A DNA stretch of 64,000 nucleotides, from assembly GCA_028873965.1 (NCBI GenBank), contig JAPPMU010000024.1, positions 16,503-80,502 of the forward strand, given 5' to 3'. The notes beneath the pieces are model-generated. The model was given only the letters and a program-made list of their open reading frames with translations, ran no database searches and was not told the origin of the DNA. Source of the stretch: Chloroflexota bacterium. Lineage in GTDB: Bacteria > Chloroflexota > Dehalococcoidia > Lucifugimonadales > UBA3495. How positions within the stretch are numbered: the stretch's first letter is position 1; each line of letters starts with the position of its first letter. The position numbers and the translations under genes are program-made. Shown here one piece after another: positions 3,937 to 62,233 of the stretch.

Positions 3937-5676
3937 TTGCGACATCCGCTCGCCCGAAGAGCAAGTCGAGGTAACATCATCGCTATTCAACAGGTCAATG
4001 GCAACGCCGCATTCAGTGAAGACGTAGCATTATTCATAGATTGGGAGAACTTCAAAATCAGCCTGGCGGTGCGGGGCCGGACCCCCAACGTGTCCGCGCT
4101 GAAGGAAGAGGTCTCCAACCACGGCCGCGTTGTCGTCGGCAAAGCCTATGCCGACTGGGTATCCCGCGCCCCCGAGTTGAAAGGGGCCAGCCAGTTTATA
4201 CATGACCCGCCGTCGCTGTACGCGGCCGGCATCGAGCCGGTGTACGTGCCCACCCGGTTGCCCCTGCGCGGATCCTACCAGTCGAATCGTACCGTCAGCG
4301 TCAAGAACAGCGTTGACGTGAAGATGACCGCCGACTGCATCGACACCGCACACAACTTCCCCAACATCAACACTTTCGTCCTCGTATCCGGGGACTCCGA
4401 TTTCATCCACGTCATCAACTCCCTGCGGGCGGTCGGAAAGCGCGTCCTGGTGGTTGGCGTCTCCTGGGCCACCTCCCGGCGAATGGCCGACCACGTGGAC
4501 GGCCTGATCTTCTACGACGCGGACGTGGATCCCATTGAACCCGAAGAACCCGCGCCTTCATTCCACCGCGGTCCTGCCCAGCGCGGCCGTCCGCAACAGC
4601 CTGCTGCCCTGGCCAATCCCGGCCGGCACCAACTGCCCGAGGTCATTCGCGCCATCGAGGACGTGATCCGAACCGAGCGCGCCGCCGGCCACACGCTTCT
4701 CCTCACGTCGCTCAAACAGCGGCTGGTGCGCCGCATCGCCGGTTTCGACGAGCGCAAGCTGGGCTTCTCGGGCTTCAAGAAGCTGATGTTGCGCGTGGCC
4801 GAAGAGGGCAACATCAAGATACGCAGCGTTGACCTGGTGGATTGGATCCTGATGGCTGACGAGCCCGACCCCGAACCGGTGGCCAGGGACGATGACGACG
4901 CCGAGCTGGAGACCGCAGACTCCTACGATGATGTGGACGACGCGGCCGAGGATGCCGATGACCGGGTCGCCGGAGTGGGCGACCGCTCGGACGAACTCGA
5001 GGACAGTGATGACGATGACGAGGTGGAGGATGACCGGTCGGGCGACCGGATGACCGCGGCGGCGCGGACCAATGAGCCGGACCGGGTCGCGCCAGCCCCC
5101 GCTGACCCTGACCAGGCAAAGATCGAGCGGTCTCTGGCCGAAGCCATCGCCGCCATGGAATTGCCCGAATCCGGCGACCCGGAGGGCGACGCAGCGCGTA
5201 TCGCCGACCTGGTGGCCATGAGTCACTTCCTCGAAAATCGGGACGGCGCCGACGCGGTGATGTTCCAGGCGCTATGCAACGAGATCAGCGAAAACCTCAC
5301 CGCCGGCATCGAAGCCGAGGATGCCACCATCCGTGAGCACTGGGGAGACTCGACCGACCTGGTGGCGCGCAACCTGATCACGCGCTACGTTCGGACCCTG
5401 ATGGCCGTCGGCCTGTTCCAGTACCGCAACATCAATTTCAGGGATCCGGAGACCAACCGGGCGCGGAGACGACGGGTCTTCGGCCTGAACCGCGAGCATC
5501 CTGTCGTGGGATTCGCGCTGGCCGCCCGGCTGGGCCTGCCCTACGAGCCCCCCGAAGACGACCACGCTCCTCCCACCAACGACGCCATCGCCGCGCCGCC
5601 GGTGGATCATCACGGCTCAGCCGAGGCAGATAGCGCCGAAACGGCCGAGGACGCGGAAGTAGTCGCCTTCAGCTGA
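3937..5676 (+). CDS. NYN (LabA-like) domain protein with OST-HTH/LOTUS-like region and an acidic low-complexity linker
   Basis: N-terminal VALFIDWENF ... VLVSGDSDFIHVINSLRAVGKRVLVVG is the NYN/PIN-like pattern. A LOTUS-like segment follows (LTSLKQRLVRRIAGFDERKLGFSGFKKLMLRV), then a D/E-rich stretch. The start is uncertain (TTG at 3937 in the track). Confidence 0.7.
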   Translation: MRHPLARRASRGNIIAIQQVNGNAAFSEDVALFIDWENFKISLAVRGRTPNVSALKEEVSNHGRVVVGKAYADWVSRAPELKGASQFIHDPPSLYAAGIEPVYVPTRLPLRGSYQSNRTVSVKNSVDVKMTADCIDTAHNFPNINTFVLVSGDSDFIHVINSLRAVGKRVLVVGVSWATSRRMADHVDGLIFYDADVDPIEPEEPAPSFHRGPAQRGRPQQPAALANPGRHQLPEVIRAIEDVIRTERAAGHTLLLTSLKQRLVRRIAGFDERKLGFSGFKKLMLRVAEEGNIKIRSVDLVDWILMADEPDPEPVARDDDDAELETADSYDDVDDAAEDADDRVAGVGDRSDELEDSDDDDEVEDDRSGDRMTAAARTNEPDRVAPAPADPDQAKIERSLAEAIAAMELPESGDPEGDAARIADLVAMSHFLENRDGADAVMFQALCNEISENLTAGIEAEDATIREHWGDSTDLVARNLITRYVRTLMAVGLFQYRNINFRDPETNRARRRRVFGLNREHPVVGFALAARLGLPYEPPEDDHAPPTNDAIAAPPVDHHGSAEADSAETAEDAEVVAFS

Positions 5677-41092: not shown

Positions 41093-42718
41093 ATGCCCAT
41101 GAAAAAGAGGAAACCGGAAGGCGAACCCATCAGGTACGCCTTGTACGTCAGGTTTTCAAGCTGGCAGCAAGACGGTGAAAACTCCAAAGAGGGACAGCTC
41201 AACGCCCTGCGCGCGTACGTTGAGTCCAAAGGCGGCGTGATCGTAAAGATCTACATCGACGAGGGCGTGAGCGGCAAGCGCGACGACCGCAAAGAGCTCA
41301 ACGAGTTGATGCGGGACGCCGGAAACCGCATACGCCCCTTTGACGAAGTCCTGGTCTGGAAATTCGACAGGTTCGGGCGCCGGGCCAGCACCATGGACCG
41401 CCGCATCACCGAGCTGGAAGAGCGCGGCATCGGCATCACCGCCATCCAACAACCCATACAGGGGAAACCCTCCGTAGTAAGGTTGTTCAGGACCATGCTG
41501 GGCGGCTTCGCCGAGTACGTCAGCGACAACATGGGCGAGGACATTTCCCGCGGCAGAAAAACTTCCGCCGCACACGGCGTCTGGACCAGTTCGTCCGTGC
41601 CGTTCGGATACAAAAAGGACTACCGGATGGACCGGAACAAAATGCGTCCGTTTCTGGTGCCGGACCCCGACACGGCGCCAATAGTCCAGCGGGTGTTCAG
41701 CCTGTACCTTGACGGCTCCAGCACGTCAAAGATCGCCAGCGTCTTCCGGGAAGAGGACGTGCCTGGCCCCACCGAAAAGCCGTGGACCCCGAAACGGGTC
41801 TCGCAAATGCTGAAAAACATCGAATACGCCGGCTTCATCCAATTCGGTCAACGCTCCAAGTACGAGGATGAAGTGGCGCTCACAACCGCGCCCGCGATGG
41901 AAATTGTGAGCTTGGAAGACTACAACCTGGCGCAGGACATAATGGTGTCCCGCAATCCGACGAACAGGCACCCCCGGGAAATCGCCAGCGTCCATCTGCT
42001 GAGCGGACTGACCCACTGCGGTAGGGGCAGCCACAAGATGAGCCCCACGGGCGGGGAGCGCAGCTACTACAACTGCAACGGAAGGCGCAACGGGATATGC
42101 CCGGACTGCGACACGCCCAACGTCAGGGCGGAACGGCTGGATGCCTTGGTCCTCCAGCACGTACTGGACAGGATCATCATCAAGGAGAACACGGAACGGA
42201 TTCTCGCCATCGTAGCCAGCAGCCAGACGGAAGCCACGATGGAAGTGGAAGAGGAACTGAAGAACGTCAATTTGGAAATTGAGGGCCAGAAGCAAGCGAG
42301 AAAGAACCTGCTCAAGCTGGTGGAGGAAGAATACGCGGTGTCGGCGGACATCTCCGAAAGGCTGAGTGAAATCAGGGAGAGCCTGACGCGGCTCGAATCA
42401 AGGGCGCTTGAGGCAAGGGCCAAGGTGTCTAACGAAAAAGCCCTCATCTCAAATCCGGACAAGGTTCTTGCCTACGCGAAGAAACTCGAGACCTATCTCC
42501 GCGGCACCAACCTGGACCTCACCAAGGCAATCCTGAATGATCTGATAGTGCAGGTCAAAGTCTATCCCGGAGAGCAGAAGGACACCGCAAACGTGGTCAT
42601 CACATACCGGTTGCCTACGCCGCCCACGGGCTGGACCGAGAAGACCGACATGGAAGTGATCGCCCTGCGGAAAAATGTGCGCTCTTTAGAGACACCCGCC
42701 AAAGCCGGTATCCAGTAA
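41093..42718 (+). CDS. large serine recombinase
   Basis: The resolvase catalytic domain is present (YALYVRFSSWQQ..., IYIDEGVSGKRDDRKEL, VLVWKFDRFGRR). It is followed by the recombinase domain, a zinc ribbon (CGRGSHKM...YYNCNGRRNGICPDC) and a long coiled coil. The 3' end runs into a REP unit (..PAKAGIQ). Confidence 0.9.
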   Translation: MPMKKRKPEGEPIRYALYVRFSSWQQDGENSKEGQLNALRAYVESKGGVIVKIYIDEGVSGKRDDRKELNELMRDAGNRIRPFDEVLVWKFDRFGRRASTMDRRITELEERGIGITAIQQPIQGKPSVVRLFRTMLGGFAEYVSDNMGEDISRGRKTSAAHGVWTSSSVPFGYKKDYRMDRNKMRPFLVPDPDTAPIVQRVFSLYLDGSSTSKIASVFREEDVPGPTEKPWTPKRVSQMLKNIEYAGFIQFGQRSKYEDEVALTTAPAMEIVSLEDYNLAQDIMVSRNPTNRHPREIASVHLLSGLTHCGRGSHKMSPTGGERSYYNCNGRRNGICPDCDTPNVRAERLDALVLQHVLDRIIIKENTERILAIVASSQTEATMEVEEELKNVNLEIEGQKQARKNLLKLVEEEYAVSADISERLSEIRESLTRLESRALEARAKVSNEKALISNPDKVLAYAKKLETYLRGTNLDLTKAILNDLIVQVKVYPGEQKDTANVVITYRLPTPPTGWTEKTDMEVIALRKNVRSLETPAKAGIQ

Positions 42719-42949: not shown

Positions 42950-43270
42950 TCACCCTCTGTCTTGTTCCTCTTCCGGAACGGGCATACCGGGCCGCCAGCC
43001 CCGTGGCGCGGGGTGTCCCCGCCGATTGTGTCGGCCTAGCGCCCAGAGAAAGGCGGAGACGTCAATGCCGGCGCGTTCTACCTCTTTGCCCAGAGTAGGC
43101 CCGCGCATCGGCCGGTTGCCCCAATCCGTGAGCGTGATGCTGATTTGCCCGTTAGACAATATGACGTGGCTGCCCTTGCCCCGGCGACGACGGCTGATTA
43201 TCTCGAATCCAAATCTCCGAAAGGCCGATACGGCCTCGCCAAATGGCACATTGCTAATTGATACCGGCAT
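42950..43270 (-). CDS. hicA: HicA-family toxin-like protein
   Basis: AVSAFRRFGFEIISRRRRGKGSHVIL is the HicA pattern. It overlaps the hicB 3' end by 17 nt. At 106 aa it is longer than typical. Confidence 0.6.
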   Translation of the reverse strand: MPVSISNVPFGEAVSAFRRFGFEIISRRRRGKGSHVILSNGQISITLTDWGNRPMRGPTLGKEVERAGIDVSAFLWALGRHNRRGHPAPRGWRPGMPVPEEEQDRG

Positions 43271-43538
43271 TCAGATTGACCAACACGCTGGCCGTTTGCA
43301 CCGTGTAGCCCTGGGTCGTCCAGTCCTTTTTCATTTGCTCGGCGTCTTCGGTTTCCTCCATAGCCGGACGCCCGACTTCCTCCAGAAATAGTTCGATGGC
43401 GCCCTGGACCATGTACAGGGCTTCATCCCGGTCTTCGCCTTCGGAGGCGCAGCCGGGGAGGGCGGGCACAAAAACCGAGTAACCGGCGTCATCGCCTCCG
43501 GATACCAGCACCACTTCAAACTCCTCGGTTTGAGGCAT
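43254..43538 (-). CDS. hicB: HicB-family antitoxin
   Basis: EVVLVSGGDDAGYSVFVPALPGCASEGEDRDEALYMVQGAIELFLEE is the HicB/UPF0150 pattern. ATG at 43538. Confidence 0.7.
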   Translation of the reverse strand: MPQTEEFEVVLVSGGDDAGYSVFVPALPGCASEGEDRDEALYMVQGAIELFLEEVGRPAMEETEDAEQMKKDWTTQGYTVQTASVLVNLNAGIN

Positions 43539-45407: not shown

Positions 45408-45576
45408 AGTGACCTCCGCAGCAGGGCTGCGCTTGTTATGGGTTTGCTGTTGGTTGAACGGGAGTATAGGGCATTGGGGAGAGGGCCGCCAGATTGGTGA
45501 CCCTTTCCTCTTGCGCCCATCGCGACCGTCAATTTATCATCGCCGCGAGATCACAACTCCGCAAATCCGTCCTACC

Positions 45577-46527
45577 ATGACCGAACCGAAAACGATAAAC
45601 GCTGCACAAACCGGCGTCTTTGAGGGGGATTGCCTGGAGTTAATCCCAAATCTCCCCGATGCCAGTATCGACGTTGTTGTCACCAGTCCGCCCTACTGGG
45701 GCCAACGCTCCCCCGGTGGGGGTGTGGGCAACGGCGCTGAGGAAGACCCCAGGGAGTACCTTGCCTTTTTGGAGGCGGTATTCACTGCTTTGCTGCCCAA
45801 GCTGAAGCGGCACGGGATTGCGTGGCTCAACTTGGGCGATGCCTACAACACGCCGGTAAATTGGGGAGCGAAGGATTACAAATACAGTTCGTTAGGGGCT
45901 GATAAAAATGGTTTCTCGCCCGAAAACGCGGCCTATACCAAGCCGCGTTTCAAGCGTAAGGCGTTTGTTGACAAAACGACCGGATGGCTACAGTACGGCA
46001 ACTTGCTGATGCTGCCGCAGCGTCTGCTGATAGCGCTCACTGAATCGGGGTATCTGTACCGCGGCGAAGTTATCTGGACCAAGAAGAACCCGATGCCGGA
46101 AGGACGTTGCCGCCGGCCGCACCGCAAGCATGAACCCATATACCTGTTGGCCAAAGATGAGCAGCATTCGTTCCGCGCCGCGCCGCCGGTGCCCAGCGTG
46201 TGGGAGTTTGCCAATGAACACATCCCCGGCTTGCAGCACCGATCACGGTTTCCCATAGAACTGCCCAAACGCTGCATTGAAGCTTACGGGCGGAGCGGAC
46301 GCGAGGTAGTGGTGCTGGACCCATTCTCCGGTTCCGGGTCAGCCGGCATAGCAGCGCTGCGATTAGGCTGTACTTACATCGGGTTCGAGATTGACCCGGA
46401 GCAGGTTGCGGAATCAAGGAAGAGGTTGGCGCAGATCAACGAACAGCAAAATTTCAACTTTGACGAGGCGAACGGCGTCATAAAGTCGAAATCAGAAATC
46501 TCGAAAAATGGTCGTCTGGATTCGTAA
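45577..46527 (+). CDS. DNA methyltransferase (N4-C/N6-A, beta class, SPPY motif)
   Basis: DVVVTSPPYWGQ is motif IV. VVVLDPFSGSGSAGIAALRLGCTYIGFEID is motif I. ATG at 45577. The region is lower in GC. Confidence 0.85.
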   Translation: MTEPKTINAAQTGVFEGDCLELIPNLPDASIDVVVTSPPYWGQRSPGGGVGNGAEEDPREYLAFLEAVFTALLPKLKRHGIAWLNLGDAYNTPVNWGAKDYKYSSLGADKNGFSPENAAYTKPRFKRKAFVDKTTGWLQYGNLLMLPQRLLIALTESGYLYRGEVIWTKKNPMPEGRCRRPHRKHEPIYLLAKDEQHSFRAAPPVPSVWEFANEHIPGLQHRSRFPIELPKRCIEAYGRSGREVVVLDPFSGSGSAGIAALRLGCTYIGFEIDPEQVAESRKRLAQINEQQNFNFDEANGVIKSKSEISKNGRLDS

Positions 46528-47575
46528 AATCACATACGAATATCCGGGCTTCTGCATCGCTATCTTCGGGTGTGGGCGTCGTATTGCGGTTGTAGGAAAA
46601 GCACGCTGAGAAGTGGCCATGCTCCTCGAAGTCGCGCCGTTTGTCGCTCGGTTGGCCGTCATCAGTGTCTCCAAACTCGCCGCGATTGACTGGCCGCGCT
46701 GCGGGGAAACTCTTGACATCCATTGTCCAAAACACGGAAAGGTAACCGGCGGAGATCAATGCTTGGCTCATTGGCACGTCATCGGTGCGCCTTTCCGCAA
46801 GGCTGGATTTCACGTGAACCACGCCTAGCAGCTGATCTACGCTATCAACATCATATAACACTAATATGTCGGCTTTATCAGGAATAATGCGTCGATCATC
46901 AACAATACCCAGCAGCGCGGCTTTTTCGGCTTTATTACCTATACGAATGTCCACGCCGTGACGCGCCAGGAACCGCCGGTAGTGCCTTACCATAACGCGC
47001 TCTAAAGCCCACCCGCTGGTCCGTTTCCAACTCTGTTCCAAATTCAGCCGGGCGTTGGCTATCGGGTGATTCGAACGGTCGCAATAGGCACGATTTACCA
47101 AAAACGTCCACAAATCGGATGGATTCGCATTCGGCCACACTTGTACCGCAGCTAAAAACATATCCGCGACAGCGTCAGCTCGCCTGTTGCCAGACGCTAA
47201 TCCTTCTTTGAGTATGCTCACTACCCGGTCAAATTCCTGCTGCGTTGCTCCTTGGATCTGATATTCCGCGTCGTACCGGTCATACCTGAACCGGATCAGC
47301 ACCCCATTGCCGGTTGCGACCGCGGTAAGACCGTCCGTGCGGTTTGAAGTTTCGGCATCGCCGATACCGTCGAAAAGGCGCCCTGGCGCAATCCCAAACG
47401 CCGATGCCAGTTGCAAGATGGCGGTTAAGGCTGGGTTGCGCTCCCCGCGTTCAATGCCGCCGATGTATGACCGATCCAGCCCCGCGACCTCGGCTAGGCT
47501 CTCCTGCGTCATGCCCAGAGATTCGCGCAGCCGACGAACGTTGCTGCCGAATTTCAGTTTGCCAGCATCGCCCAT
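46478..47575 (-). CDS. XRE-HTH fused to a putative PD-(D/E)xK-type restriction endonuclease domain
   Basis: N-terminal HTH (FGSNVRRLRESLGMTQESLAEVAGLDRSYIGGIERGERNP). The C-terminal region contains IIPDKADILVLYD...GVVHVKSSLAERR, a nuclease-like motif. The gene is convergent with the methyltransferase and overlaps it by 50 nt. Confidence 0.55.
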   Translation of the reverse strand: MGDAGKLKFGSNVRRLRESLGMTQESLAEVAGLDRSYIGGIERGERNPALTAILQLASAFGIAPGRLFDGIGDAETSNRTDGLTAVATGNGVLIRFRYDRYDAEYQIQGATQQEFDRVVSILKEGLASGNRRADAVADMFLAAVQVWPNANPSDLWTFLVNRAYCDRSNHPIANARLNLEQSWKRTSGWALERVMVRHYRRFLARHGVDIRIGNKAEKAALLGIVDDRRIIPDKADILVLYDVDSVDQLLGVVHVKSSLAERRTDDVPMSQALISAGYLSVFWTMDVKSFPAARPVNRGEFGDTDDGQPSDKRRDFEEHGHFSACFSYNRNTTPTPEDSDAEARIFVCDFTNPDDHFSRFLISTL

Positions 47576-47644
47576 GGTGGGGTATTCTGTGGACGGTTGC
47601 CGGCAGCGTCTAGCGACTAATCGTACCATTTGGAGGCATCACCC

Positions 47645-49923: not shown

Positions 49924-50733
49924 CTACAACCCGCAATGCCCTTCGCATTCGTTGATGAATCCGTTCACTTCATGCTCATGGTTGTCAAGCACAAGTGCAT
50001 CCTCCAGCGGGATGCGGCGATGATGCAAGTAAGCCCGCTTGCGAAACATTCGGCCGGCATTGTGCGTGCTGGACCGGAGCATGGCGTCAATTTCCACAGC
50101 CTCCTGGTATAGCTCCGGTTCGCTCTGCTTGATGTCAAGCCAACTGGACGAGCTGCGGAACGGGCAACCGATGCAAGCGCTGCGGGAAAGGCTGCGATTG
50201 GGATAATGTTCTGCGAACCAATACAAGCATTGTTCCCGCGTCATCGGCAAGTCGTCAATTAGTGGATAACGATGCTTAATCCACCAGTTGCGACTTGGCC
50301 TGACCCGCAGTGCCTCATCGGTAGTTATACCCAACCACATCTCAACGTTAGTTTCCGATGAAAGACTTTGCCGAGGTCTGACCCCCAACAACCGCTGAAC
50401 CTCTTTTCTGATGGGGTCTAGTTTGTAGTTTTTGGTGCATTGCCGCCAGTTGATTCCGGCGGGTTGACCATCCCGGTCGGCTAGATACGCCGGCAAAGTC
50501 AGCCAAGCTTGCCCTTGGGCGTTGACGCCGTTGACGACGTCATCCCGTAGGCTACGCCCGTTGTCAGTTGTGATAATCGGGAACGACACCTTGGATTGTA
50601 GCCATTCGATGTTGTCATAGACAGATCGGGGTTCCCACTGGGTATCGGCGAATATGGCACAATCGGGTTTGACGCCAAAAGTTTCATCGTTGGCAAGCAG
50701 GCACATCACAGTGCTTTGCACACCGCCACCCAA
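49924..50733 (-). CDS. PAPS-reductase-like (PP-loop ATP pyrophosphatase superfamily) protein; operon gene 4
   Basis: LGGGVQSTVM (partial PP-loop), RQCTKNYKLDPIRK, GITTDEALR, HRYPLIDDLPMTREQC and SACIGCPFRS. The only start in the track is a TTG inside the PP-loop, with no SD. The frame stays open upstream into gene 3. Confidence 0.75.
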   Translation of the reverse strand: MGGGVQSTVMCLLANDETFGVKPDCAIFADTQWEPRSVYDNIEWLQSKVSFPIITTDNGRSLRDDVVNGVNAQGQAWLTLPAYLADRDGQPAGINWRQCTKNYKLDPIRKEVQRLLGVRPRQSLSSETNVEMWLGITTDEALRVRPSRNWWIKHRYPLIDDLPMTREQCLYWFAEHYPNRSLSRSACIGCPFRSSSSWLDIKQSEPELYQEAVEIDAMLRSSTHNAGRMFRKRAYLHHRRIPLEDALVLDNHEHEVNGFINECEGHCGL

Positions 50734-50777
50734 ACTCAGGACGCGGAGTGCCGGCGGCGTGGAGTTTGGCCGGTAGC

Positions 50778-51548
50778 CTACGGTTCTTTTTTTGGCTTGG
50801 CCTCCTCCACAACAGCGCGGAGCTCGTCGTAATCCAGAAAATCGAAAGACAGAGTGGCGGCGCGCAGGTTCAATGCTGTCATCAACTCATTGGCATCTTT
50901 CGTTGTCCGCAGGTGCTCGTTGCCGTCGAGAAAAACGTCCCAGACCGCCGCCAATAGTCGGGGATTAGACGACAAAAATGTCCGGTCAATGGTTTGGTGG
51001 TACAGGTTCACGTTTCGAGCCATTTCTGCAAGCAAGTCGTCTTGGCTATGCTTTGAATGTTCGGCAGCCCGGGTCGCCATTTCACCAAGCCACCACAGCC
51101 GTGCCGCGGCGTTCCACTTGCGCCCGTCAGAGCCAGAGTATTGCAGATAACGCCGGTGCACGAAATTATACGTGGCTTGGTTGAGATTGCTGGATTGCCA
51201 CCGGACAGGAACGTACTTAGGCAATTCAAAGCAGTTGATGGTTGCCCAGAGCAAACTATCCGCTGCTTGCACGACAGAGGTACCTATCGCACTGCGCATT
51301 ATGGGCGCGTACATGGCATCAGTATTTGGTCCGCCTTTCTGCAAGCGATTCAAATCCGCTAAAGGCACAGACATATTCAGCCGCGCGCCGTATAACTCGG
51401 CGTCCGGGCCATGCTCCTCACGGCCAGCCTGCTCCATGCGCTGGCGTAGTTCGTCTGGATCGCCCTGGATAAACAACCGTGGCTCGGACTCGGCAAGCGT
51501 CAACAGGGCGTTATAACCGGCATCGTTCAATAACTGTATTTCTGGCAT
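50778..51548 (-). CDS. hypothetical protein; operon gene 3
   Basis: 256 aa, helical, W/R-rich core (AARLWWLGEMATRAAEHS). No family recognised. The gene ends with CCA AAA AAA GAA CCG TAG. Confidence 0.6.
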   Translation of the reverse strand: MPEIQLLNDAGYNALLTLAESEPRLFIQGDPDELRQRMEQAGREEHGPDAELYGARLNMSVPLADLNRLQKGGPNTDAMYAPIMRSAIGTSVVQAADSLLWATINCFELPKYVPVRWQSSNLNQATYNFVHRRYLQYSGSDGRKWNAAARLWWLGEMATRAAEHSKHSQDDLLAEMARNVNLYHQTIDRTFLSSNPRLLAAVWDVFLDGNEHLRTTKDANELMTALNLRAATLSFDFLDYDELRAVVEEAKPKKEP

Positions 51549-51561
51549 GGTCAGTTAGCCT

Positions 51562-52443
51562 CTATTCATCAGTATCGTCAGCGTCAGCATAGTCAGCCAA
51601 CAAGATGGCAAACGGCGCACTCAATAGACGTTGGGTCGCCAGAAACAAGGAATGCGAACCATCGTATCCTGGGCCCCCAATGTCTAGATTGTGAGCAAGC
51701 AATTGGGTCTTTACGCAACTGAACCAGGCGCAATTTTCGTAGTCTCCGTCATCCCACAGATCTTTCACGACGGTTAACACAGAAAGGACTGCGCTGGTGA
51801 AAACCGATGGCATTGGCAATCTGCTGGCTTTGCGCACTTCGTTGAATGTATCCAGCGTAGCGCGGTTGGCGAATATCTCCACATAGTCGTTTCCGATGTC
51901 CACGCTGACGTCGAACTCACCGTCGTTCAACCGCCCGCTTTCGTCTTCTTTCAAGCGGAAAATGCTCCTCACTGGTCTCACATCGGAATTAATGATGAAA
52001 GACCAATGCAGGTCGGTGGCCAACGGCGCCAGTTCGTTAATTATCACCGGTTGCTTGCCGTATTCTGCATGGGCAGTTTCGGTGGAAAGAACAAAACTGC
52101 GGGTTGCGAGTATGACCGGATGCACCTGCACCTCGTTTTTGAGCCGGCCCACCGGAATACGCCCACGCGCCACGAACGGCTCGCCGGGCATAGCTTCCAG
52201 CCGGTCACGGTACAGGGTGGAGCCACAGTACACCATTGCCGCGCATTTGGCGTCGCCGGACTCCACAGCACCGACGAGCGCCGGCTCGTTCAAATTGAAC
52301 CGCACCGATATAGACAGAATCCCGCTGTCCTGGTCGTATTGCGGTGGGTCACAGGATGTCTCCAGCGTGGAATCCAAGCCGTAGTCGTCAGCATCAGGGC
52401 GCAGCACCGGGTACAGGTACTGGCGATTAGAACGGTAACGCAT
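51562..52443 (-). CDS. hypothetical protein; operon gene 2
   Basis: 293 aa. The start overlaps the stop of the ATPase gene (TAATG). Acidic C-terminus. No family recognised. Confidence 0.6.
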   Translation of the reverse strand: MRYRSNRQYLYPVLRPDADDYGLDSTLETSCDPPQYDQDSGILSISVRFNLNEPALVGAVESGDAKCAAMVYCGSTLYRDRLEAMPGEPFVARGRIPVGRLKNEVQVHPVILATRSFVLSTETAHAEYGKQPVIINELAPLATDLHWSFIINSDVRPVRSIFRLKEDESGRLNDGEFDVSVDIGNDYVEIFANRATLDTFNEVRKASRLPMPSVFTSAVLSVLTVVKDLWDDGDYENCAWFSCVKTQLLAHNLDIGGPGYDGSHSLFLATQRLLSAPFAILLADYADADDTDE

Positions 52444-54338
52444 TATCCGCTCCCGCCCGGCGTTTGCGGGCTGGTCTGGCCTCTGCCCACCAACCGGAAC
52501 GTCTTGCCTTGCACCGGCTCATTAGTTTTTATCTCCAGCTGGTAACGATCTTGTCCGTTGCCCGGCAGCTTGCGGATTGCCCCTTCTGCTACGTCAACCA
52601 CAGTGTCGCCAGATTTTGCCTCCTGGATCCTCAGTGAATGTTCGGCGCCGTCCTCCCCTACCGCTACGAGTCGCACTTCGAACAATTCTTGTCCAGGATT
52701 GTCAAAAGCGGCGATGACCCAATGAGTTTCGTTTCTGACCAGTTGTACCCTGATGCTGTTCACCCGAGCCACCGGCGGACGGCGATTAGCGCCAGTCTGT
52801 CCGCGTCCACCGCCACGACCCCCCGACCCTCCGCTGCCGCCGCCGTTCCGTGTTCGCCGCCGTTCGCCCCCACGGCCCCCGTGCTCTCCGGCGAGCAAAC
52901 CCGCGCCGCCTCCGGTATTAGGTGATTGCCAAGGGACAGTCACAGAAACGGTTGCAGGTTTTTCAGTGTCGCCAGGTTCGCCGCCGTCATCGTATGTCGA
53001 CAGCCCATAGGGTACTAGTTCGGGGATGTATTCGCCGGATTCCGGAGACTGAGGCCCGGCTGCCAACCCAATGCGCTCTCGCACCCACTGGCCGATTTCC
53101 GTCAGCGCATTGTTGGCATCCCTGCGGCGGTCGGAGTCTTCTATGTAGCCCACTGATAGTCTGTCGTGCTTGGGAGATTCCGAATCTCTGATATAAGACG
53201 ATTCGCCGGGTTCAGATATGCACTCGATGACTGCTGTGAATCCACGCCAGTGCGGATCTATCCGGCCCAAGCCCAACGCCATGTCCCGCCGGTCGGAGGT
53301 AATCATCATTCCCGAATCGCGGACCAGAGCAATCTCGCGGACTTTCGGATTTGAGTCCTCGTGAACTTGGATACGCAACGAAACATTGCCTACGCCGGCG
53401 AAGTATTCCGTTGCAGCTGGTTTCATTTTTGACACCCTGATAAAGTTCGCGGTGCGGGACAACTGTCCGTGGTATTGCCTACCGATATTATCGGCGTTCA
53501 CCTCATCATCGCCAACTTTGACGGTAAGATGCCCTTTTACAATGGCGTGAAAGTAATTATCGATGGCAATTGCAATGCAATCTCGTTGCCAGCCGGGTTG
53601 GCCTCTATCCGGACCAATCTTGTAGCCGGGAATGTATATGGCCGTGCCGGGTTGCCTCAGCCCAAATATGCGCGGCACGTCGTTGTCCGTCAGCGGGGCG
53701 TAAGACCCTGCGCTCAGGTAGCCGGTGCGGCGCTTTGGTGCGCCACTGCCGTCGGTATGTGATACCAAAATGGTCTTGCCGATGAACCGCAGGTTCATGC
53801 GGTCATTGTCCCGCCAGGCGGTGGAATAGAGGACAGTACGCAGGTCGGTCACCGCAAAAGCGGAGTGCTTGCCCAAGCCAAAGGAACCAGCGGCGTCCTT
53901 TTGCTCTTTCACCGGCGAGCCGGAGCCCTTGGTAAGAGCTGCCCATTTGCTGGGAGCGCCGCCGGGCCGAGGCACGTCTTGCGCACCGGTGGTATTGCTG
54001 TCTCTGATGCAAAGGGTGCGCAGTTGGCGGTTATCGTTCAGCAGCCATTTGCCGTTAGTGAACTGCTCTTTTCCCTTGTCATCGTTATGAGGTGAGTTTA
54101 TCGCCCAGTCGAGGATATCGCGCAGTTGGTTGCCTTCAAAGTCGCTGATAGCGAGGTCCTGCAAGCTAAACTCCACTCTGACTGGCTCACCGCCAGCCTT
54201 GGCGTCAAGCGAGTTCTGGATGGATTCCCGAATCAAGTTGGTATCCCGCTGGTCCGTGAAATGCGAGATGCCGGGATCGTTAGGTCCCTCAATTTCACCG
54301 GCGTCATTGGGCGGGAACTGCCATGTCATTTTTGGCAT
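52443..54338 (-). CDS. GHKL-superfamily ATPase with Gly/Arg-rich linker and C-terminal beta-rich domain; operon gene 1
   Basis: Bergerat-fold N box IRESIQNSLDA, a G1-like box CIRDSNTTGA and a G2 box AGSFGLGKHSAF. The low-complexity stretch GGRGGERRRTRNGGGSGGSGGRGGGRGQ spans aa 475-520. GGGGAG lies 8 nt upstream of the ATG. Confidence 0.75.
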   Translation of the reverse strand: MPKMTWQFPPNDAGEIEGPNDPGISHFTDQRDTNLIRESIQNSLDAKAGGEPVRVEFSLQDLAISDFEGNQLRDILDWAINSPHNDDKGKEQFTNGKWLLNDNRQLRTLCIRDSNTTGAQDVPRPGGAPSKWAALTKGSGSPVKEQKDAAGSFGLGKHSAFAVTDLRTVLYSTAWRDNDRMNLRFIGKTILVSHTDGSGAPKRRTGYLSAGSYAPLTDNDVPRIFGLRQPGTAIYIPGYKIGPDRGQPGWQRDCIAIAIDNYFHAIVKGHLTVKVGDDEVNADNIGRQYHGQLSRTANFIRVSKMKPAATEYFAGVGNVSLRIQVHEDSNPKVREIALVRDSGMMITSDRRDMALGLGRIDPHWRGFTAVIECISEPGESSYIRDSESPKHDRLSVGYIEDSDRRRDANNALTEIGQWVRERIGLAAGPQSPESGEYIPELVPYGLSTYDDGGEPGDTEKPATVSVTVPWQSPNTGGGAGLLAGEHGGRGGERRRTRNGGGSGGSGGRGGGRGQTGANRRPPVARVNSIRVQLVRNETHWVIAAFDNPGQELFEVRLVAVGEDGAEHSLRIQEAKSGDTVVDVAEGAIRKLPGNGQDRYQLEIKTNEPVQGKTFRLVGRGQTSPQTPGGSG

Positions 54339-54368
54339 TTTGTATCTCCCCTACAAGCTGCGTAGGGT

Positions 54369-54397
54369 ATCTTATTGACCGTTCGCTATGTCGTCAA
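54369..54397 (-). promoter_or_regulatory. sigma70-like promoter candidate for the four-gene operon
   Basis: On the minus strand: TTGACG (54397-54392), a 17 nt spacer, then TAAGAT (54374-54369), 30 nt upstream of the ATG. Confidence 0.4.
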
Positions 54398-56181: not shown

Positions 56182-56928
56182 TTATGTTTGTTGTCGCAGA
56201 TGCGCCAGTTGCTCACGGAGCCGGGCGACTTCGGCTTCGGCCGCTTGCCTGCCTGCTTCGCTGGCCTGTAATGCCGCTTCGCTGTCTTGGAGGGCGAATT
56301 CGCTTTCCTGGTGGGTCCGGAGCCATTCGCCCGTCGCCGGGTCGTATAGCCGGAGAGTCAAGTCAGGCGCTACGGCTAGATCCAATCCCAGCATTACGCT
56401 GTGGGCGCGCAGATTGCCATCGTCGCCGGTGGTCAGGGGCTGCTCCCGGTATTCCGCACCGTCCAGCCTCTCCAGCACCAGAGCCGGCGTGAAGTAGTTT
56501 CCGGTCGGATCGAAGCGCACGTATTCCGTAACGCCCATGTCGGCGTAGATGCGACGCTTTTCGGTAGCGTCCCGCCGCCAGGTTCGGGAAGAGGCGATCT
56601 CCATGATGAAGTCCGGCGCCCGGCCCTCGCGCCAGACCAGCCAGGAGTCCCGCGGGTGACGGCTGGTGACGCCAAAGACGACGAAGACATCGGGCGCGAC
56701 CCTGACGTCGTTCCGGTTCATCCGGTAGTAGATCAACATGTCGCCGCCGACGTAAACGTCCTCGTGCTCGTGGTATCGAACGCGCAGCGTGGAAACGGTT
56801 TCAGTCAGGGGCGTGTATTGCGCTTCGGATTCGGCCATGGGTTCACCGTCGGAGGATGGGTATTCGATGGTGGGGTCATCGATCTCATCCTCGTCAGGAA
56901 CCTGGGGCCTTGCGGTTTTGCTGACCAT
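56182..56928 (-). CDS. Uma2-family (DUF820) endonuclease-like protein with C-terminal coiled coil
   Basis: YPSSDGEPMAESEAQ..., APDVFVVFG, PDFIMEIASS and EKRRIYADMGVTEYVRFDP. ATG at 56928. Confidence 0.75.
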   Translation of the reverse strand: MVSKTARPQVPDEDEIDDPTIEYPSSDGEPMAESEAQYTPLTETVSTLRVRYHEHEDVYVGGDMLIYYRMNRNDVRVAPDVFVVFGVTSRHPRDSWLVWREGRAPDFIMEIASSRTWRRDATEKRRIYADMGVTEYVRFDPTGNYFTPALVLERLDGAEYREQPLTTGDDGNLRAHSVMLGLDLAVAPDLTLRLYDPATGEWLRTHQESEFALQDSEAALQASEAGRQAAEAEVARLREQLAHLRQQT

Positions 56929-56999
56929 GGATTTCGCTCCGAACGTCTGCGGTGGCGCTGGGAAGCGGCCTGTCGAAAACGGCCGCTTCCCACCGAACA

Positions 57000-57590
57000 T
57001 TATAGGCGAGGCCGGCGACGGATGCCCAAGGCGGCGACGCCGGCCAGCAGGGCCAGCGCGGCAACATCCATGGGCTTGTCGTCCGCGTCTGCGGCGGCCG
57101 CGCAGGCGCCCCCGCCGCCCGTGTCAGCCGCGGGAGTGAGCTCAGGCGGCTGTCCCGGACCCAGCGCCACGAAATCAGCAAAGGCCATCCACGCCGGGGC
57201 GGTACGGGTGCACATGCCGGTTTTGCCTTCCCGGGCATAGACGATGTATCTCCGCTCCTTTTTGAACTGGTAACCGCAGGAAATACCGCTGGCCTCCGTT
57301 TCGATGGTGATGGTTTCCCGGCGTGGTCCTTTCCACACTCGGCTGACCCGGAACTCCACCGCCACCGGGTCGGCGGACGACAGCCGGTACGGGGGATGGC
57401 CCAGGGCTCTGATGGCTACGACTTCGCCGGCGAACACGGCGTCAGCCTCAGCCAGCGCCTCGGTTGGAGAACCGGAAGGCGCGCAAAGACAGGCGTGGGC
57501 TGGCCTGGGCAACACGAACAGTGCCATCAAGCCCAGGGCGAAAACTACGGCCACGGTGGCGGCCACGAGATTGCCACGCTGCGCTCGCAC
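57000..57590 (-). CDS. secreted protein with N-terminal C-x-C after the signal peptide and a C-terminal hydrophobic anchor plus basic tail
   Basis: The signal peptide ends ..PAHA/CLCAPS (TIMP/netrin-like N-terminal pattern). The C-terminus is GGGGACAAAADADDKPMDVAALALLAGVAALGIRRRPRL. Confidence 0.55.
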   Translation of the reverse strand: MRAQRGNLVAATVAVVFALGLMALFVLPRPAHACLCAPSGSPTEALAEADAVFAGEVVAIRALGHPPYRLSSADPVAVEFRVSRVWKGPRRETITIETEASGISCGYQFKKERRYIVYAREGKTGMCTRTAPAWMAFADFVALGPGQPPELTPAADTGGGGACAAAADADDKPMDVAALALLAGVAALGIRRRPRL

Positions 57591-61437: not shown

Positions 61438-61821
61438 ATGGAATACAAGGGCCGAAAGTACCGAAAACTTTACGCTCACCTGCGCAGCCTGTCTTCTCAG
61501 GAATGGAAGGCGTCATTCGATGATATTGAAGCCATCATCGGTGACCGCCTGCCCGCGTCCGCGCGACGTCACCGGGCTTCATGGGCCAACGACATCACGC
61601 AAGCCCGCGCCCGCGCCTGGCTCGCCGCTGGGTGGGAGACGGCTGACGTGGATATGGACGCCGAGACGCTGCTTTTCCGGCGAAAGCGACCACTGCTCGC
61701 CAGTCGCCGCAATCTCGATGAAATTTGGCCCGCCCGCTCCTTTGGCCCTTGGCCCGAAGGACTGAGCCTGCGGCGTGAAGACTTATACCGGGAATGGGAG
61801 CGGGTCTCTGATGTTTATTGA
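61438..61821 (+). CDS. putative antitoxin of the VapC pair
   Basis: 127 aa. The C-terminus (GPWPEGLSLRREDLYREWE) resembles VapB-type tails. It overlaps vapC by 11 nt. Confidence 0.5.
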   Translation: MEYKGRKYRKLYAHLRSLSSQEWKASFDDIEAIIGDRLPASARRHRASWANDITQARARAWLAAGWETADVDMDAETLLFRRKRPLLASRRNLDEIWPARSFGPWPEGLSLRREDLYREWERVSDVY

Positions 61822-62233
61822 CACCAATGTACTCGTGTACGCACGGAACCGCGACGCCCCTAACCACCATCTCGCGAGAGATGCGCTGCAACAGGTGGCG
61901 CAAGGCCCTGAACCCCTGCGCATCAGCCGTCAGGTAATCCGAGAGTATCTGGCGGTAGTCACACGTCCGCAGGCCTGGTCGGTTCCACTTACCAGTACCG
62001 AGGCGGTCCAAGACGTGAACTCTCTGAACGGCTCCTTCAATATACTTGCGGATGGCCCGGAGGTAATGGAGGCGTTGCTCGCATTGATCCGCAGAGTTCC
62101 GGTATCAGGAAGGCAAATCCACGACGCCAACATTGTCGCAACCATGTTGGCCCACGGGGAACGCCGGCTGCTGACGTTCAACACCAGAGATTTCCGCAGA
62201 TACGGAGACCGAATCGAGCTGGTTGCCCTCTGA
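61811..62233 (+). CDS. vapC: PIN-domain toxin VapC
   Basis: MFIDTNVLVYA ... GRQIHDANIVATM ... LLTFNTRDF carries the PIN acidic residues in order. Confidence 0.8.
   Translation: MFIDTNVLVYARNRDAPNHHLARDALQQVAQGPEPLRISRQVIREYLAVVTRPQAWSVPLTSTEAVQDVNSLNGSFNILADGPEVMEALLALIRRVPVSGRQIHDANIVATMLAHGERRLLTFNTRDFRRYGDRIELVAL

Follow-up and report, generated by a model that had tools for sequence, protein, structure and literature searches.

Does a compact, low-GC operon in a Chloroflexota genome encode an immune system that marks DNA, and is its last reading frame a gene of its own? This question is raised by a 64,000-nucleotide (nt) stretch of a Chloroflexota metagenome-assembled genome (contig JAPPMU010000024.1), hereafter referred to as the window, in which a block of four co-directional open reading frames (ORFs) lies on the minus strand between positions 49,924 and 54,397. 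The frames are ORF A (gene 1, 52443-54338, 631 amino acids (aa)), ORF B (gene 2, 51562-52443, 293 aa), the zero-frame ORF C (gene 3, 50778-51548, 256 aa) and, as listed with a TTG start, "gene 4" (49924-50733, 269 aa). Genes A and B overlap as TAATG, B and C are separated by 13 nt, and C and gene 4 by 44 nt; the ORF coordinates and spacings agree with an initial annotation made from the letters alone. That annotation counted four genes and knew of no described system with this architecture. We found that genes 3 and 4 are apparently joined by a conserved predicted −1 frameshift, and that genes 1-3 correspond to PDC-M33, a catalogued though untested candidate in PADLOC. The candidate role in DNA modification or defence that the annotation proposed is retained here as the best reading of the locus.

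The junction between gene C and the D domain

The TTG listed as the start of gene 4 falls inside the PP-loop motif (…ALRVLS-L-GGGVQS), and initiation at this codon would delete the β1 strand and the PP-loop serine. In the same frame, hereafter the D frame, about 50 open codons extend upstream of the TTG and include no ATG, GTG or TTG, and no Shine-Dalgarno (SD)-like sequence was found ahead of the TTG. Since the TTG lies inside the PP-loop and the D frame has no upstream start, the 44-nt gap more plausibly encodes a linker within one protein joined by frameshifting. The D frame is −1 relative to gene C, the 3' end of which reads …GCC AAG CCA AAA AAA GAA CCG TAG and contains the slippery heptamer A_AAA_AAA in the zero frame of C (50787-50793, minus strand), a predicted −1 frameshift site that is identical in three assemblies. 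The SD-like element GGAGGAGG is located 7 nt upstream of the slippery site (50801-50808, minus strand) and is a possible frameshift stimulator, a role that we assume by analogy with E. coli dnaX; GAGGAGG or AGGGAG recurs at this position in related loci. On the 3' side, an irregular stem-loop is predicted (50718-50781, minus strand; minimum free energy −28.7 kcal/mol, z = −0.63, not significant), its 3' arm falling on the PP-loop Gly codons.

The −1-frame ORF (49924-50787, minus strand) comprises 287 codons and a stop, and would encode a 21-residue linker followed by a domain that we term D. Joined to residues 1-254 of C, its 287 residues give a predicted C-D fusion of 541 aa. This predicted protein aligned without gaps across the junction with a natural 541-aa fusion (61% identity, collinear), and was also collinear with a natural 551-aa fusion (45% identity, E = 3e-159).

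We retrieved 80 reference-genome loci with an alignment of A and annotated them by iterated local hidden Markov models. The four-gene neighbourhood, whose conservation the initial annotation had put forward as a check, recurs in the same order A-B-C-D in 31 of these loci, representing 31 genomes. The hosts are mostly Dehalococcoidia, and also include Spongiisociaceae, Caldilineaceae, Phototrophicaceae and Acidimicrobiia. The insertion site, generally among housekeeping genes, differs from genome to genome, and two metagenome loci that were fetched independently through D (L090 and L091) show the same arrangement with C_CCA_AAA as the heptamer.

D is in the −1 frame in all 29 loci in which C and D are unfused, and in 14 of them no ATG, GTG or TTG occurs upstream of the PP-loop in the D frame. 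The heptamer at the homologous position is C_CCA_AAA in 26 of the 29, A_AAA_AAA in L011 and C_CCT_TTA in L026, the remaining exception being L006. It is conserved at synonymous positions: for the tripeptide P-P-K, the codons CCC-CCA-AAA are expected in only about 3% of cases from local codon usage. Neither the heptamer nor the KPPK tail was present in the C genes of loci without D. The same two domains are also found fused in frame as single called genes, of 541 aa (L013/L089) and 535 aa (L021/L088), and when 1.84 billion cluster representatives were searched exhaustively with D, 14 of the best 150 matches were proteins of 524-574 aa with the C domain at the N-terminus and the D domain at the C-terminus. 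The linker is conserved in length and agrees in this with the in-frame fusions, and the invariant residues P3 and R6 of …PPALRV… are located upstream of any possible start of D.

Of 20 loci, 9 have a predicted stem of significant stability that begins 5-9 nt beyond the heptamer (z between −2.2 and −4.0), again with its 3' arm in the PP-loop Gly codons. The register of the helix differs between clades because its GGC-GGC-GGC target is repetitive. When the helix was specified by hand, 80% of the cells paired, as compared with 31-45% when it was slid by 1-2 columns, with moderate support from shuffling, and one stem pair covaried (A-U in seven cases, G-C in seven).

Individual loci depart from the common arrangement. 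L006:11911-14369 is decaying, with B split by a 753-bp insert and the heptamer altered to CCCCCCAAA; C is truncated in L005, and a gap of about 1.25 kb separates B and C in L025. In two Spongiisociaceae loci, extra DUF6339 paralogues come after A-B-C-D (L017:16122-20528 and L018:14395-15237): L017 has three in tandem together with a second A-like gene on the opposite strand, and L018 has one more.

A sequencing error at the run of seven A's was ruled out by the three identical independent assemblies and by the non-homopolymer heptamer of the relatives. Transcriptional slippage is unlikely as a mechanism for the whole family, since CCCAAAA has only four A's. Taken together, the frame, heptamer, linker and fusions make it very likely that a programmed −1 ribosomal frameshift yields both C and C-D, with stimulatory elements that are so far only partly characterised. 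Programmed −1 frameshifting is known from E. coli dnaX (tau/gamma), the IS3-family transposases and the phage tail chaperones G/GT. The junction described here resembles the dnaX type in its zero-frame X_XXY_YYZ heptamer, in the SD-like element upstream, in the stem 5-9 nt downstream found in many loci, and in the predicted formation, at a fixed ratio, of two proteins that share one start. It differs in that the shift would add a whole enzyme domain to a candidate defence subunit, and in that the stimulatory structure is not conserved in register.

Gene callers do not treat D uniformly: the ENA record has a 260-aa protein that begins at an internal start (L001:13633-14415), and the Logan assemblies L002 and L003 have no call there (about 4686-5352). 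Consequently, database proteins of this family are often truncated or missing.

The A-B-C core and its alternative partners

Protein A matched the PADLOC model PDC-M33A with E = 4.8e-71, residues 4-607 aligning with profile positions 3-613 of 627, and proteins B and C matched PDC-M33B (E = 4.5e-23) and PDC-M33C (E = 4.4e-16), respectively. The three genes are adjacent and co-directional in the order and orientation A>B>C of the PDC-M33 model, with an overlap or a 13-nt spacing between them. Judged by these profile matches, genes 1-3 are the PADLOC candidate PDC-M33 A/B/C. Protein C also belongs to Pfam DUF6339 (E = 1.5e-19). The initial annotation had been unable to place genes 2 and 3 in any family; both now have a place in PDC-M33 and gene 3 in DUF6339 as well, while gene 2 indeed has no assignable family beyond PDC-M33B. 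NCBIfam contained no match for either protein.

"PDC" denotes a "phage defence candidate", one of 145 single-gene candidates and multi-gene cassettes that were inferred by guilt-by-embedding and are explicitly untested; PDC-M33 is listed among them as a three-family cassette (CAS_00129, FAM>>FAM>>FAM), and no mechanism was proposed for it (Payne et al., bioRxiv 10.1101/2024.01.29.577857). Our literature search found no paper naming PDC-M33 or DUF6339 in its main text.

Protein A consists of an N-terminal Bergerat-type domain, a conserved middle part (LVRDxGM, ESPxH), a Gly/Arg-rich linker and a C-terminal domain. The Bergerat motifs quoted in the initial annotation are present in the translation, namely the N-box ExxxNxxDA, the G1 box DxxxxG and the G2 box GxxGxGK. 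Residues E38, N42, D45, D113, G118, G151, G154, G156 and K157 show little or no variation, even among aligned proteins of 21-53% identity. Matches to known families were weak, and all were to GHKL proteins: Pfam HATPase_c_3 was matched below threshold by 5 of 16 members (best E = 0.022), the NCBIfam sacsin ATP-binding model gave 0.0017, under the model cutoff, and the only PDB sequences found were four of Topo VI-B and two of MutL, aligned on the N-box and the G2 box with non-significant values (E = 0.33-0.78). The assignment of A as GHKL-like, which the initial annotation had made, therefore appears well motivated by its motifs, though not proven. The RGG-like, low-complexity linker (…GGGAGLLAGEHGGRGGERRRTRNGGGSGGSGGRGGGRGQTGANRR…; 52776-52913, minus strand, about residues 476-521) separates the conserved body of A from its C-terminal domain; in the alignment it is found across the family, with variable length and composition.

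The AlphaFold model of protein B (predicted local distance difference test (pLDDT) 83, predicted template modelling score (pTM) 0.54) has a β-sandwich N-terminal domain and a helical C-terminal domain, and Foldseek found no PDB match with E < 1e-3 for it, template modelling scores being at most 0.26. Protein C was modelled as an all-α protein (pLDDT 94.5, pTM 0.90), for which the best Foldseek hits had E = 2.0 against the PDB and E = 0.83 against BFVD, with no relative among them; as modelled, its fold is unrepresented in both databases. Ideas that B or C might be nuclease, HEPN or SRA/EVE-like proteins found no support in the Foldseek searches of both proteins against the PDB and of C against BFVD.

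The loci without D point to the function of the core. In all 12 loci that lack D and have recognisable B and C genes, a C5-cytosine DNA methyltransferase gene abuts the A-B-C operon, usually immediately upstream and overlapping the start of A. In contrast, no nearby C5 methyltransferase was found in any of the 31 A-B-C-D loci. In these loci, A-B-C partners either D or a C5 methyltransferase, and the two are mutually exclusive. Among the more distant loci with A only, 14 of 35 have a C5 methyltransferase. Further arrangements of the core are found on mobile elements: Dcm and Vsr genes adjoin A-B-C on a Deinococcus plasmid, on a conjugative Lactococcus lactis plasmid A-B-DUF6339 is flanked by an AlwI restriction enzyme on one side and AbiGI/GII on the other, and in a temperate Clostridium phage the A-B-C triad is integrase-proximal with a DNA methyltransferase downstream. 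C5 methyltransferases work without helper proteins. The best reading of A-B-C is therefore that it is the part of the system that does not modify DNA but may sense or restrict it, with D as an alternative modification module.

Prokaryotic MORC/paraMORC GHKL ATPases are known to sit in restriction-modification (R-M) operons with cytosine methylases and Vsr (PMC2292703), and the A-B-C loci with Dcm, Vsr or a methyltransferase match this theme by analogy. The likeness extends to a GHKL-type ATPase encoded on mobile elements in operons with cytosine methyltransferases and Vsr; however, the helicase and nuclease partners typical of MORC/paraMORC are absent here, and the Pfam HATPase_c_3 match of A stays below threshold.

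Distant homologues of A (about 25% identity) were observed in Pseudomonas cichorii, Pseudomonas sp., Paenarthrobacter, Methanoregula and Gemmatimonadales (L049, L052, L063, L070 and L073). In these loci A is followed by two ORFs of about 258 and about 242 aa, usually with an adjacent C5 methyltransferase. Neither ORF matched the PADLOC M33B or M33C models, and these loci may represent an uncatalogued sister family of PDC-M33.

The D enzyme, its phage relatives and the setting of the cassette

The initial annotation recognised gene 4 as PAPS-reductase/PP-loop-like (PAPS, phosphoadenosine phosphosulfate), and the motifs it quoted are present in the translation. In agreement with this, D scored 26.6 bits against Pfam PAPS_reduct, above the cutoff of 22.5 bits. 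Its best match by far was phrog_424, "phosphoadenosine phosphosulfate reductase" (E = 3.4e-42, residues 5-277 against profile positions 162-411 of 460). The match to PADLOC SspD was weaker (E = 5.1e-12 for the window) but was the best in the defence library, and 20 of 20 homologues matched the model, the best with 1.7e-18, from profile position 2. We found no match of D to DndC, BrxP or QatC in PADLOC, nor to NCBIfam or PDB sequences. A sulfate-assimilation CysH was ruled out as the identity of D by the foreign composition of the cassette, by phage proteins and SspD being the closest families, and by the lack of a CysH match in the PDB and NCBIfam.

D contains a PP-loop and six invariant cysteines, which include a CxxC motif and a C-terminal ECEGxCG tail; this tail, ECEGHCG in D, recalls the catalytic tail of PAPS reductases. 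It is the most conserved part of the cassette, with a mean column identity of 77% as compared with 54-61% for A, B and C, indicating that D is under selection and is not a pseudogene.

The nearest relatives of D are stand-alone phage genes. A tblastn search found 43 phage records with up to 42% full-length identity (Geobacillus phage PK5.1), and the relatives further include genes of Synechococcus phages, Pelagibacter HTVC034P, Thermus P23-77, Salisaeta SSIP-1 and Mycobacterium abscessus prophages. These genes are located in replication/recombination modules, and their products have short N-termini, typically with 5-10 residues ahead of the PP-loop motif. Among 80 metagenome loci anchored on D (L090-L169), a C5 methyltransferase gene lies directly upstream of the D-like gene in 30, one contig having the order primase, helicase, methyltransferase, D-like gene and DNA polymerase. 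On marine low-GC phage contigs, e.g., L126:4895-6801, a C5-cytosine methyltransferase gene followed by a stand-alone phrog_424 gene was observed inside a primase-helicase-polymerase module. The methyltransferase and the D-like protein may form a two-enzyme unit for DNA modification or anti-restriction in phages, and the replication-module setting of the D-like genes supports a DNA-directed role. Phage PAPS reductases have been viewed as anti-restriction DNA modifiers (PMC13551039, PMC11437467), and one has been reported to aid the evasion of Dnd (PMC13551039). As to the chemistry, phosphorothioation specifically is a possibility that we would put forward only tentatively.

One ENA scaffold and two independent Logan assemblies (L001-L003) carry the locus without a single base difference. 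The cassette block has a GC content of 0.56 against 0.65-0.67 in the flanking genes, and the spot counts with which the initial annotation called the block AT-richer (27/60 and 40/60 G+C) are exact. The contrast is sharper at third codon positions (GC3 0.62-0.64 in the cassette, 0.84-0.94 in the flanks), and because of it we regard the cassette as horizontally acquired, foreign DNA. The flanks, as annotated earlier, are ispH (LYTB) and an ion-channel gene (Ion_trans) in the precomputed Pfam assignments. The sigma-70-like promoter candidate TTGACG-N17-TAAGAT proposed upstream of gene A is present at 54369-54397 (minus strand) and agrees with the consensus at 9 of 12 positions; since the scanned region contains 3 such sites where 2.2 are expected by chance, it is a candidate only and by itself provides no evidence of a promoter.

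The neighbourhood of the cassette is loosely rich in defence and toxin-antitoxin genes. A second low-GC islet (window 45409-47629, GC 0.55-0.56), located 2.3 kb from the cassette, carries an N6/N4 DNA methyltransferase gene (45409-46527, plus strand) in tail-to-tail overlap with a gene for an HTH_3 and BsaWI-like restriction endonuclease (46478-47629, minus strand). This islet resembles an independent type II R-M pair and is separated from the cassette by high-GC housekeeping genes for an amidohydrolase and IspH. Precomputed Pfam assignments for L001 further place a large serine recombinase (Resolvase/Recombinase/Zn_ribbon_recom) at 41093-42718 (plus strand), a HicB-like antitoxin at about 43254-43538, a Uma2-family endonuclease at 56182-57000 (minus strand) and a PIN and DUF7662 pair at about 61811-62233.

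A proposed mechanism and its alternatives

We propose that the cassette is an R-M-like immune system built on the PDC-M33 core, in which the modification enzyme is tethered to an effector subunit by frameshifting. We consider this reading somewhat probable. The gene content, the conserved gene order, the frameshift signature, the in-frame fusions and the exclusive pairing of A-B-C with D or a C5 methyltransferase are observed, whereas it is inferred that the frameshift operates in cells, that D acts on DNA, by which chemistry it does so, and that the cassette protects against phages. According to this proposal, a fraction of the ribosomes would slip back by one base on A_AAA_AAA, or on C_CCA_AAA in the relatives, near the end of gene C, and the slipped ribosomes would read the 21-residue linker and then the phage-type, PAPS-reductase-like PP-loop/Fe-S domain D. 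The cell would thereby make C (28 kDa) and C-D (541 aa) in a fixed ratio. C-D would use ATP to activate DNA and would mark the host genome. The most plausible mark is one that contains sulfur, such as phosphorothioate (PT), and a housekeeping cysteine desulfurase would provide the sulfur. The A-B-C complex would act on DNA without the mark through ATP-driven conformational changes. With D attached to C, the modifying enzyme would sit within the surveillance complex, and the frameshift would determine how modification is balanced against restriction.

A bolder form of this proposal, to which we give limited credence, is that the cassette represents a fifth, undescribed sulfur/ATP-dependent DNA-modification immune system, in which a phage-type enzyme exists only as a frameshift-dosed extension of DUF6339 in a GHKL-ATPase complex, the efficiency of recoding sets the ratio of self-marking to restriction, and the stand-alone phage homologues are counter-defence copies. 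What is new in the cassette is the predicted expression device and the modification partner; the PDC-M33 candidate and the modification-based logic of R-M and BREX-like systems were already known. In our searches of the literature we came upon no defence system whose modification enzyme is coupled through a frameshift and no DUF6339-PAPS-reductase fusion, and the papers on PT and BREX systems that we searched make no mention of a frameshift.

Comparison with the known systems places the cassette beside them rather than within any of them. Genes 1-3 match the three PDC-M33 models in the same order and orientation, but PDC-M33 has only three components, whereas the window has, in addition, an SspD-like/phrog_424 domain attached to C through the predicted frameshift and lacks the C5 methyltransferase found at other A-B-C loci. 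The closest parallel for such an exchange is BREX type 4, in which BrxP, a protein with a PAPS-reductase domain, replaces the PglX methyltransferase of BREX type 1 (PMC12914056). BrxP is a fusion of SspD and DUF4007 and makes PT DNA with a nucleoside triphosphatase (NTPase) and a desulfurase in trans (PMC12914056). In both cases a conserved core exchanges a DNA methyltransferase for a PAPS-reductase-domain protein fused to a partner. However, BrxP, BrxC, PglZ, BrxL and DUF4007 were not found in the cassette by PADLOC and Pfam, its NTPase is GHKL-like and not of the P-loop type, and its fusion partner is DUF6339, joined by a predicted frameshift and not in frame.

The cassette similarly resembles the Ssp, Dnd and Tdp systems in that D matches SspD, with a PP-loop and conserved cysteines, and in that an ATPase is encoded alongside. 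In contrast to Ssp, A, B and C showed no match to SspB (DUF4007 nickase) or SspC (AAA+/DUF6079) at E <= 0.1 in PADLOC, nor in Pfam, and the SspA desulfurase, SspE and SspFGH are absent from the cassette and from the gene table covering +/-10 kb. The initial annotation counted the missing cysteine desulfurase against a fit to these systems, but the absence of SspA is not decisive because a desulfurase can, and often does, act in trans, and in the Tdp system tdpC alone is sufficient for PT synthesis (PMC12914056). DndC, DndD and DndE of the Dnd system were not matched by A-D in PADLOC, nor were the QueC-like QatC and the TatD-like QatD of QatABCD. These PADLOC scans of A-D bear out the earlier view that the locus does not fit Dnd, Ssp, BREX-4 or Qat. 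PHROG 424 is the best family match for D; unlike D, however, its phage members are free-standing, have their own start codons and lie in replication modules, often after a C5 methyltransferase.

One alternative is that ABCD is purely a DNA-modification (epigenetic) machine like SspBCD, DndCDE or BrxPC, with its restriction partner elsewhere or absent; D would insert sulfur by its PP-loop, A would be the required NTPase, and B and C would bind or nick DNA. PT synthesis requires a PAPS-reductase-domain protein and an NTPase, and BrxP is itself SspD fused to a DNA-binding partner (PMC12914056), an arrangement that C-D plus A would mirror; A, B and C contain no recognisable nuclease, and many Dnd modification modules are reported to be decoupled from restriction (PMC10853773). 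We nevertheless consider this alternative unlikely. In 12 of 12 loci without D, the partner of A-B-C is an ordinary C5 methyltransferase, and as such enzymes need neither an ATPase nor helpers, the core must do something besides assisting modification. Moreover, A is GHKL-like, whereas a P-loop NTPase is present in every known PT system, and stand-alone D-like enzymes occur in phages without A-B-C, just as tdpC works alone (PMC12914056).

It seems rather improbable, too, that D is a PP-loop ATP pyrophosphatase that adenylates or thiolates a substrate other than DNA, such as a protein C-terminus, a nucleotide signal or a tRNA, as may be the case for QueC-like QatC or for the CysH-like accessory proteins of type IV CRISPR; in that event ABCD would be an abortive-infection or signalling defence, or no defence at all. 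PP-loop enzymes are diverse, and defence QueC-family proteins are reported to conjugate bases to proteins (PMC13639016); PAPS-reductase homologues accompany type IV-B CRISPR-Cas (PMC11437467), and the ECEGHCG tail of D and the co-occurrence of D with a C5 methyltransferase in phages, which weakens a simple swap argument, also speak for such a substrate. Set against this are the mutual exclusion of D and a DNA methyltransferase beside A-B-C, the position of D-like genes in phage DNA-replication modules, the best defence-library match being SspD, the reported help of a phage PAPS reductase in evading Dnd (PMC13551039), and the recognised R-M theme of GHKL ATPases with Dcm/Vsr (PMC2292703).

The least probable alternative is that the heptamer is incidental and gene 4 is translated independently, by non-canonical initiation or by termination-reinitiation after the C stop, or is a decaying C-D remnant: the ATG found shortly before the PP-loop in some loci, the short N-termini of the stand-alone D-like proteins, the non-significant downstream structure in the window's clade and the decay of L006 (altered heptamer, interrupted B) would fit it, whereas the window and 14 of 29 loci have no usable start, no SD sequence precedes the TTG, the −1 frame is invariant and the heptamer conserved at synonymous positions, P3 and R6 lie upstream of any start, the linker length matches that of the in-frame fusions, and D is too well conserved for a pseudogene.

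Several observations weigh against the proposal of an R-M-like system with a frameshift-tethered modifier. The GHKL assignment of A draws on motifs and sub-threshold matches, PDC-M33 is itself an explicitly untested defence candidate, and in the Pfam, PDB profile and Foldseek searches A, B and C showed neither a nuclease nor any other effector domain. The match of D to SspD is moderate and no DndC, NCBIfam or PDB relative was found for it, so that any chemistry proposed for D is tentative. Most A-B-C-D cassettes lie among housekeeping genes and not in classical defence islands. In about 7 of the 29 unfused loci, an ATG occurs 12 nt before the PP-loop, from which independent initiation is conceivable; in the window's own clade the RNA structure predicted after the heptamer does not reach significance (z = −0.63), and RNAalifold found no family-wide consensus structure in 30 junction sequences. 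The methyltransferase and D are not strict alternatives everywhere, as they co-occur in phages, and D might therefore act alongside or on top of cytosine methylation, or on another substrate.

If the R-M-like reading with a frameshift-tethered modifier is confirmed, it would provide a mechanistic handle on PDC-M33 and DUF6339, which occur in Chloroflexota, Pseudomonas, Lactococcus plasmids, archaea and prophages. The physical linkage of a modification enzyme to its immune effector by programmed frameshifting would be a simple answer to the problem of balancing self-protection and attack in R-M-like systems. Confirmation would also extend the methyltransferase/PAPS-reductase swap of BREX to a second, unrelated core, suggesting that PAPS-reductase-like DNA modifiers are interchangeable "M" modules. 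For annotation, the locus is relevant as a case in which an enzyme domain is truncated or missed by gene callers. Finally, a likely role in DNA marking or anti-restriction would be suggested for the orphan phage "PAPS reductases" of phrog_424, a family with 4,056 cluster representatives.

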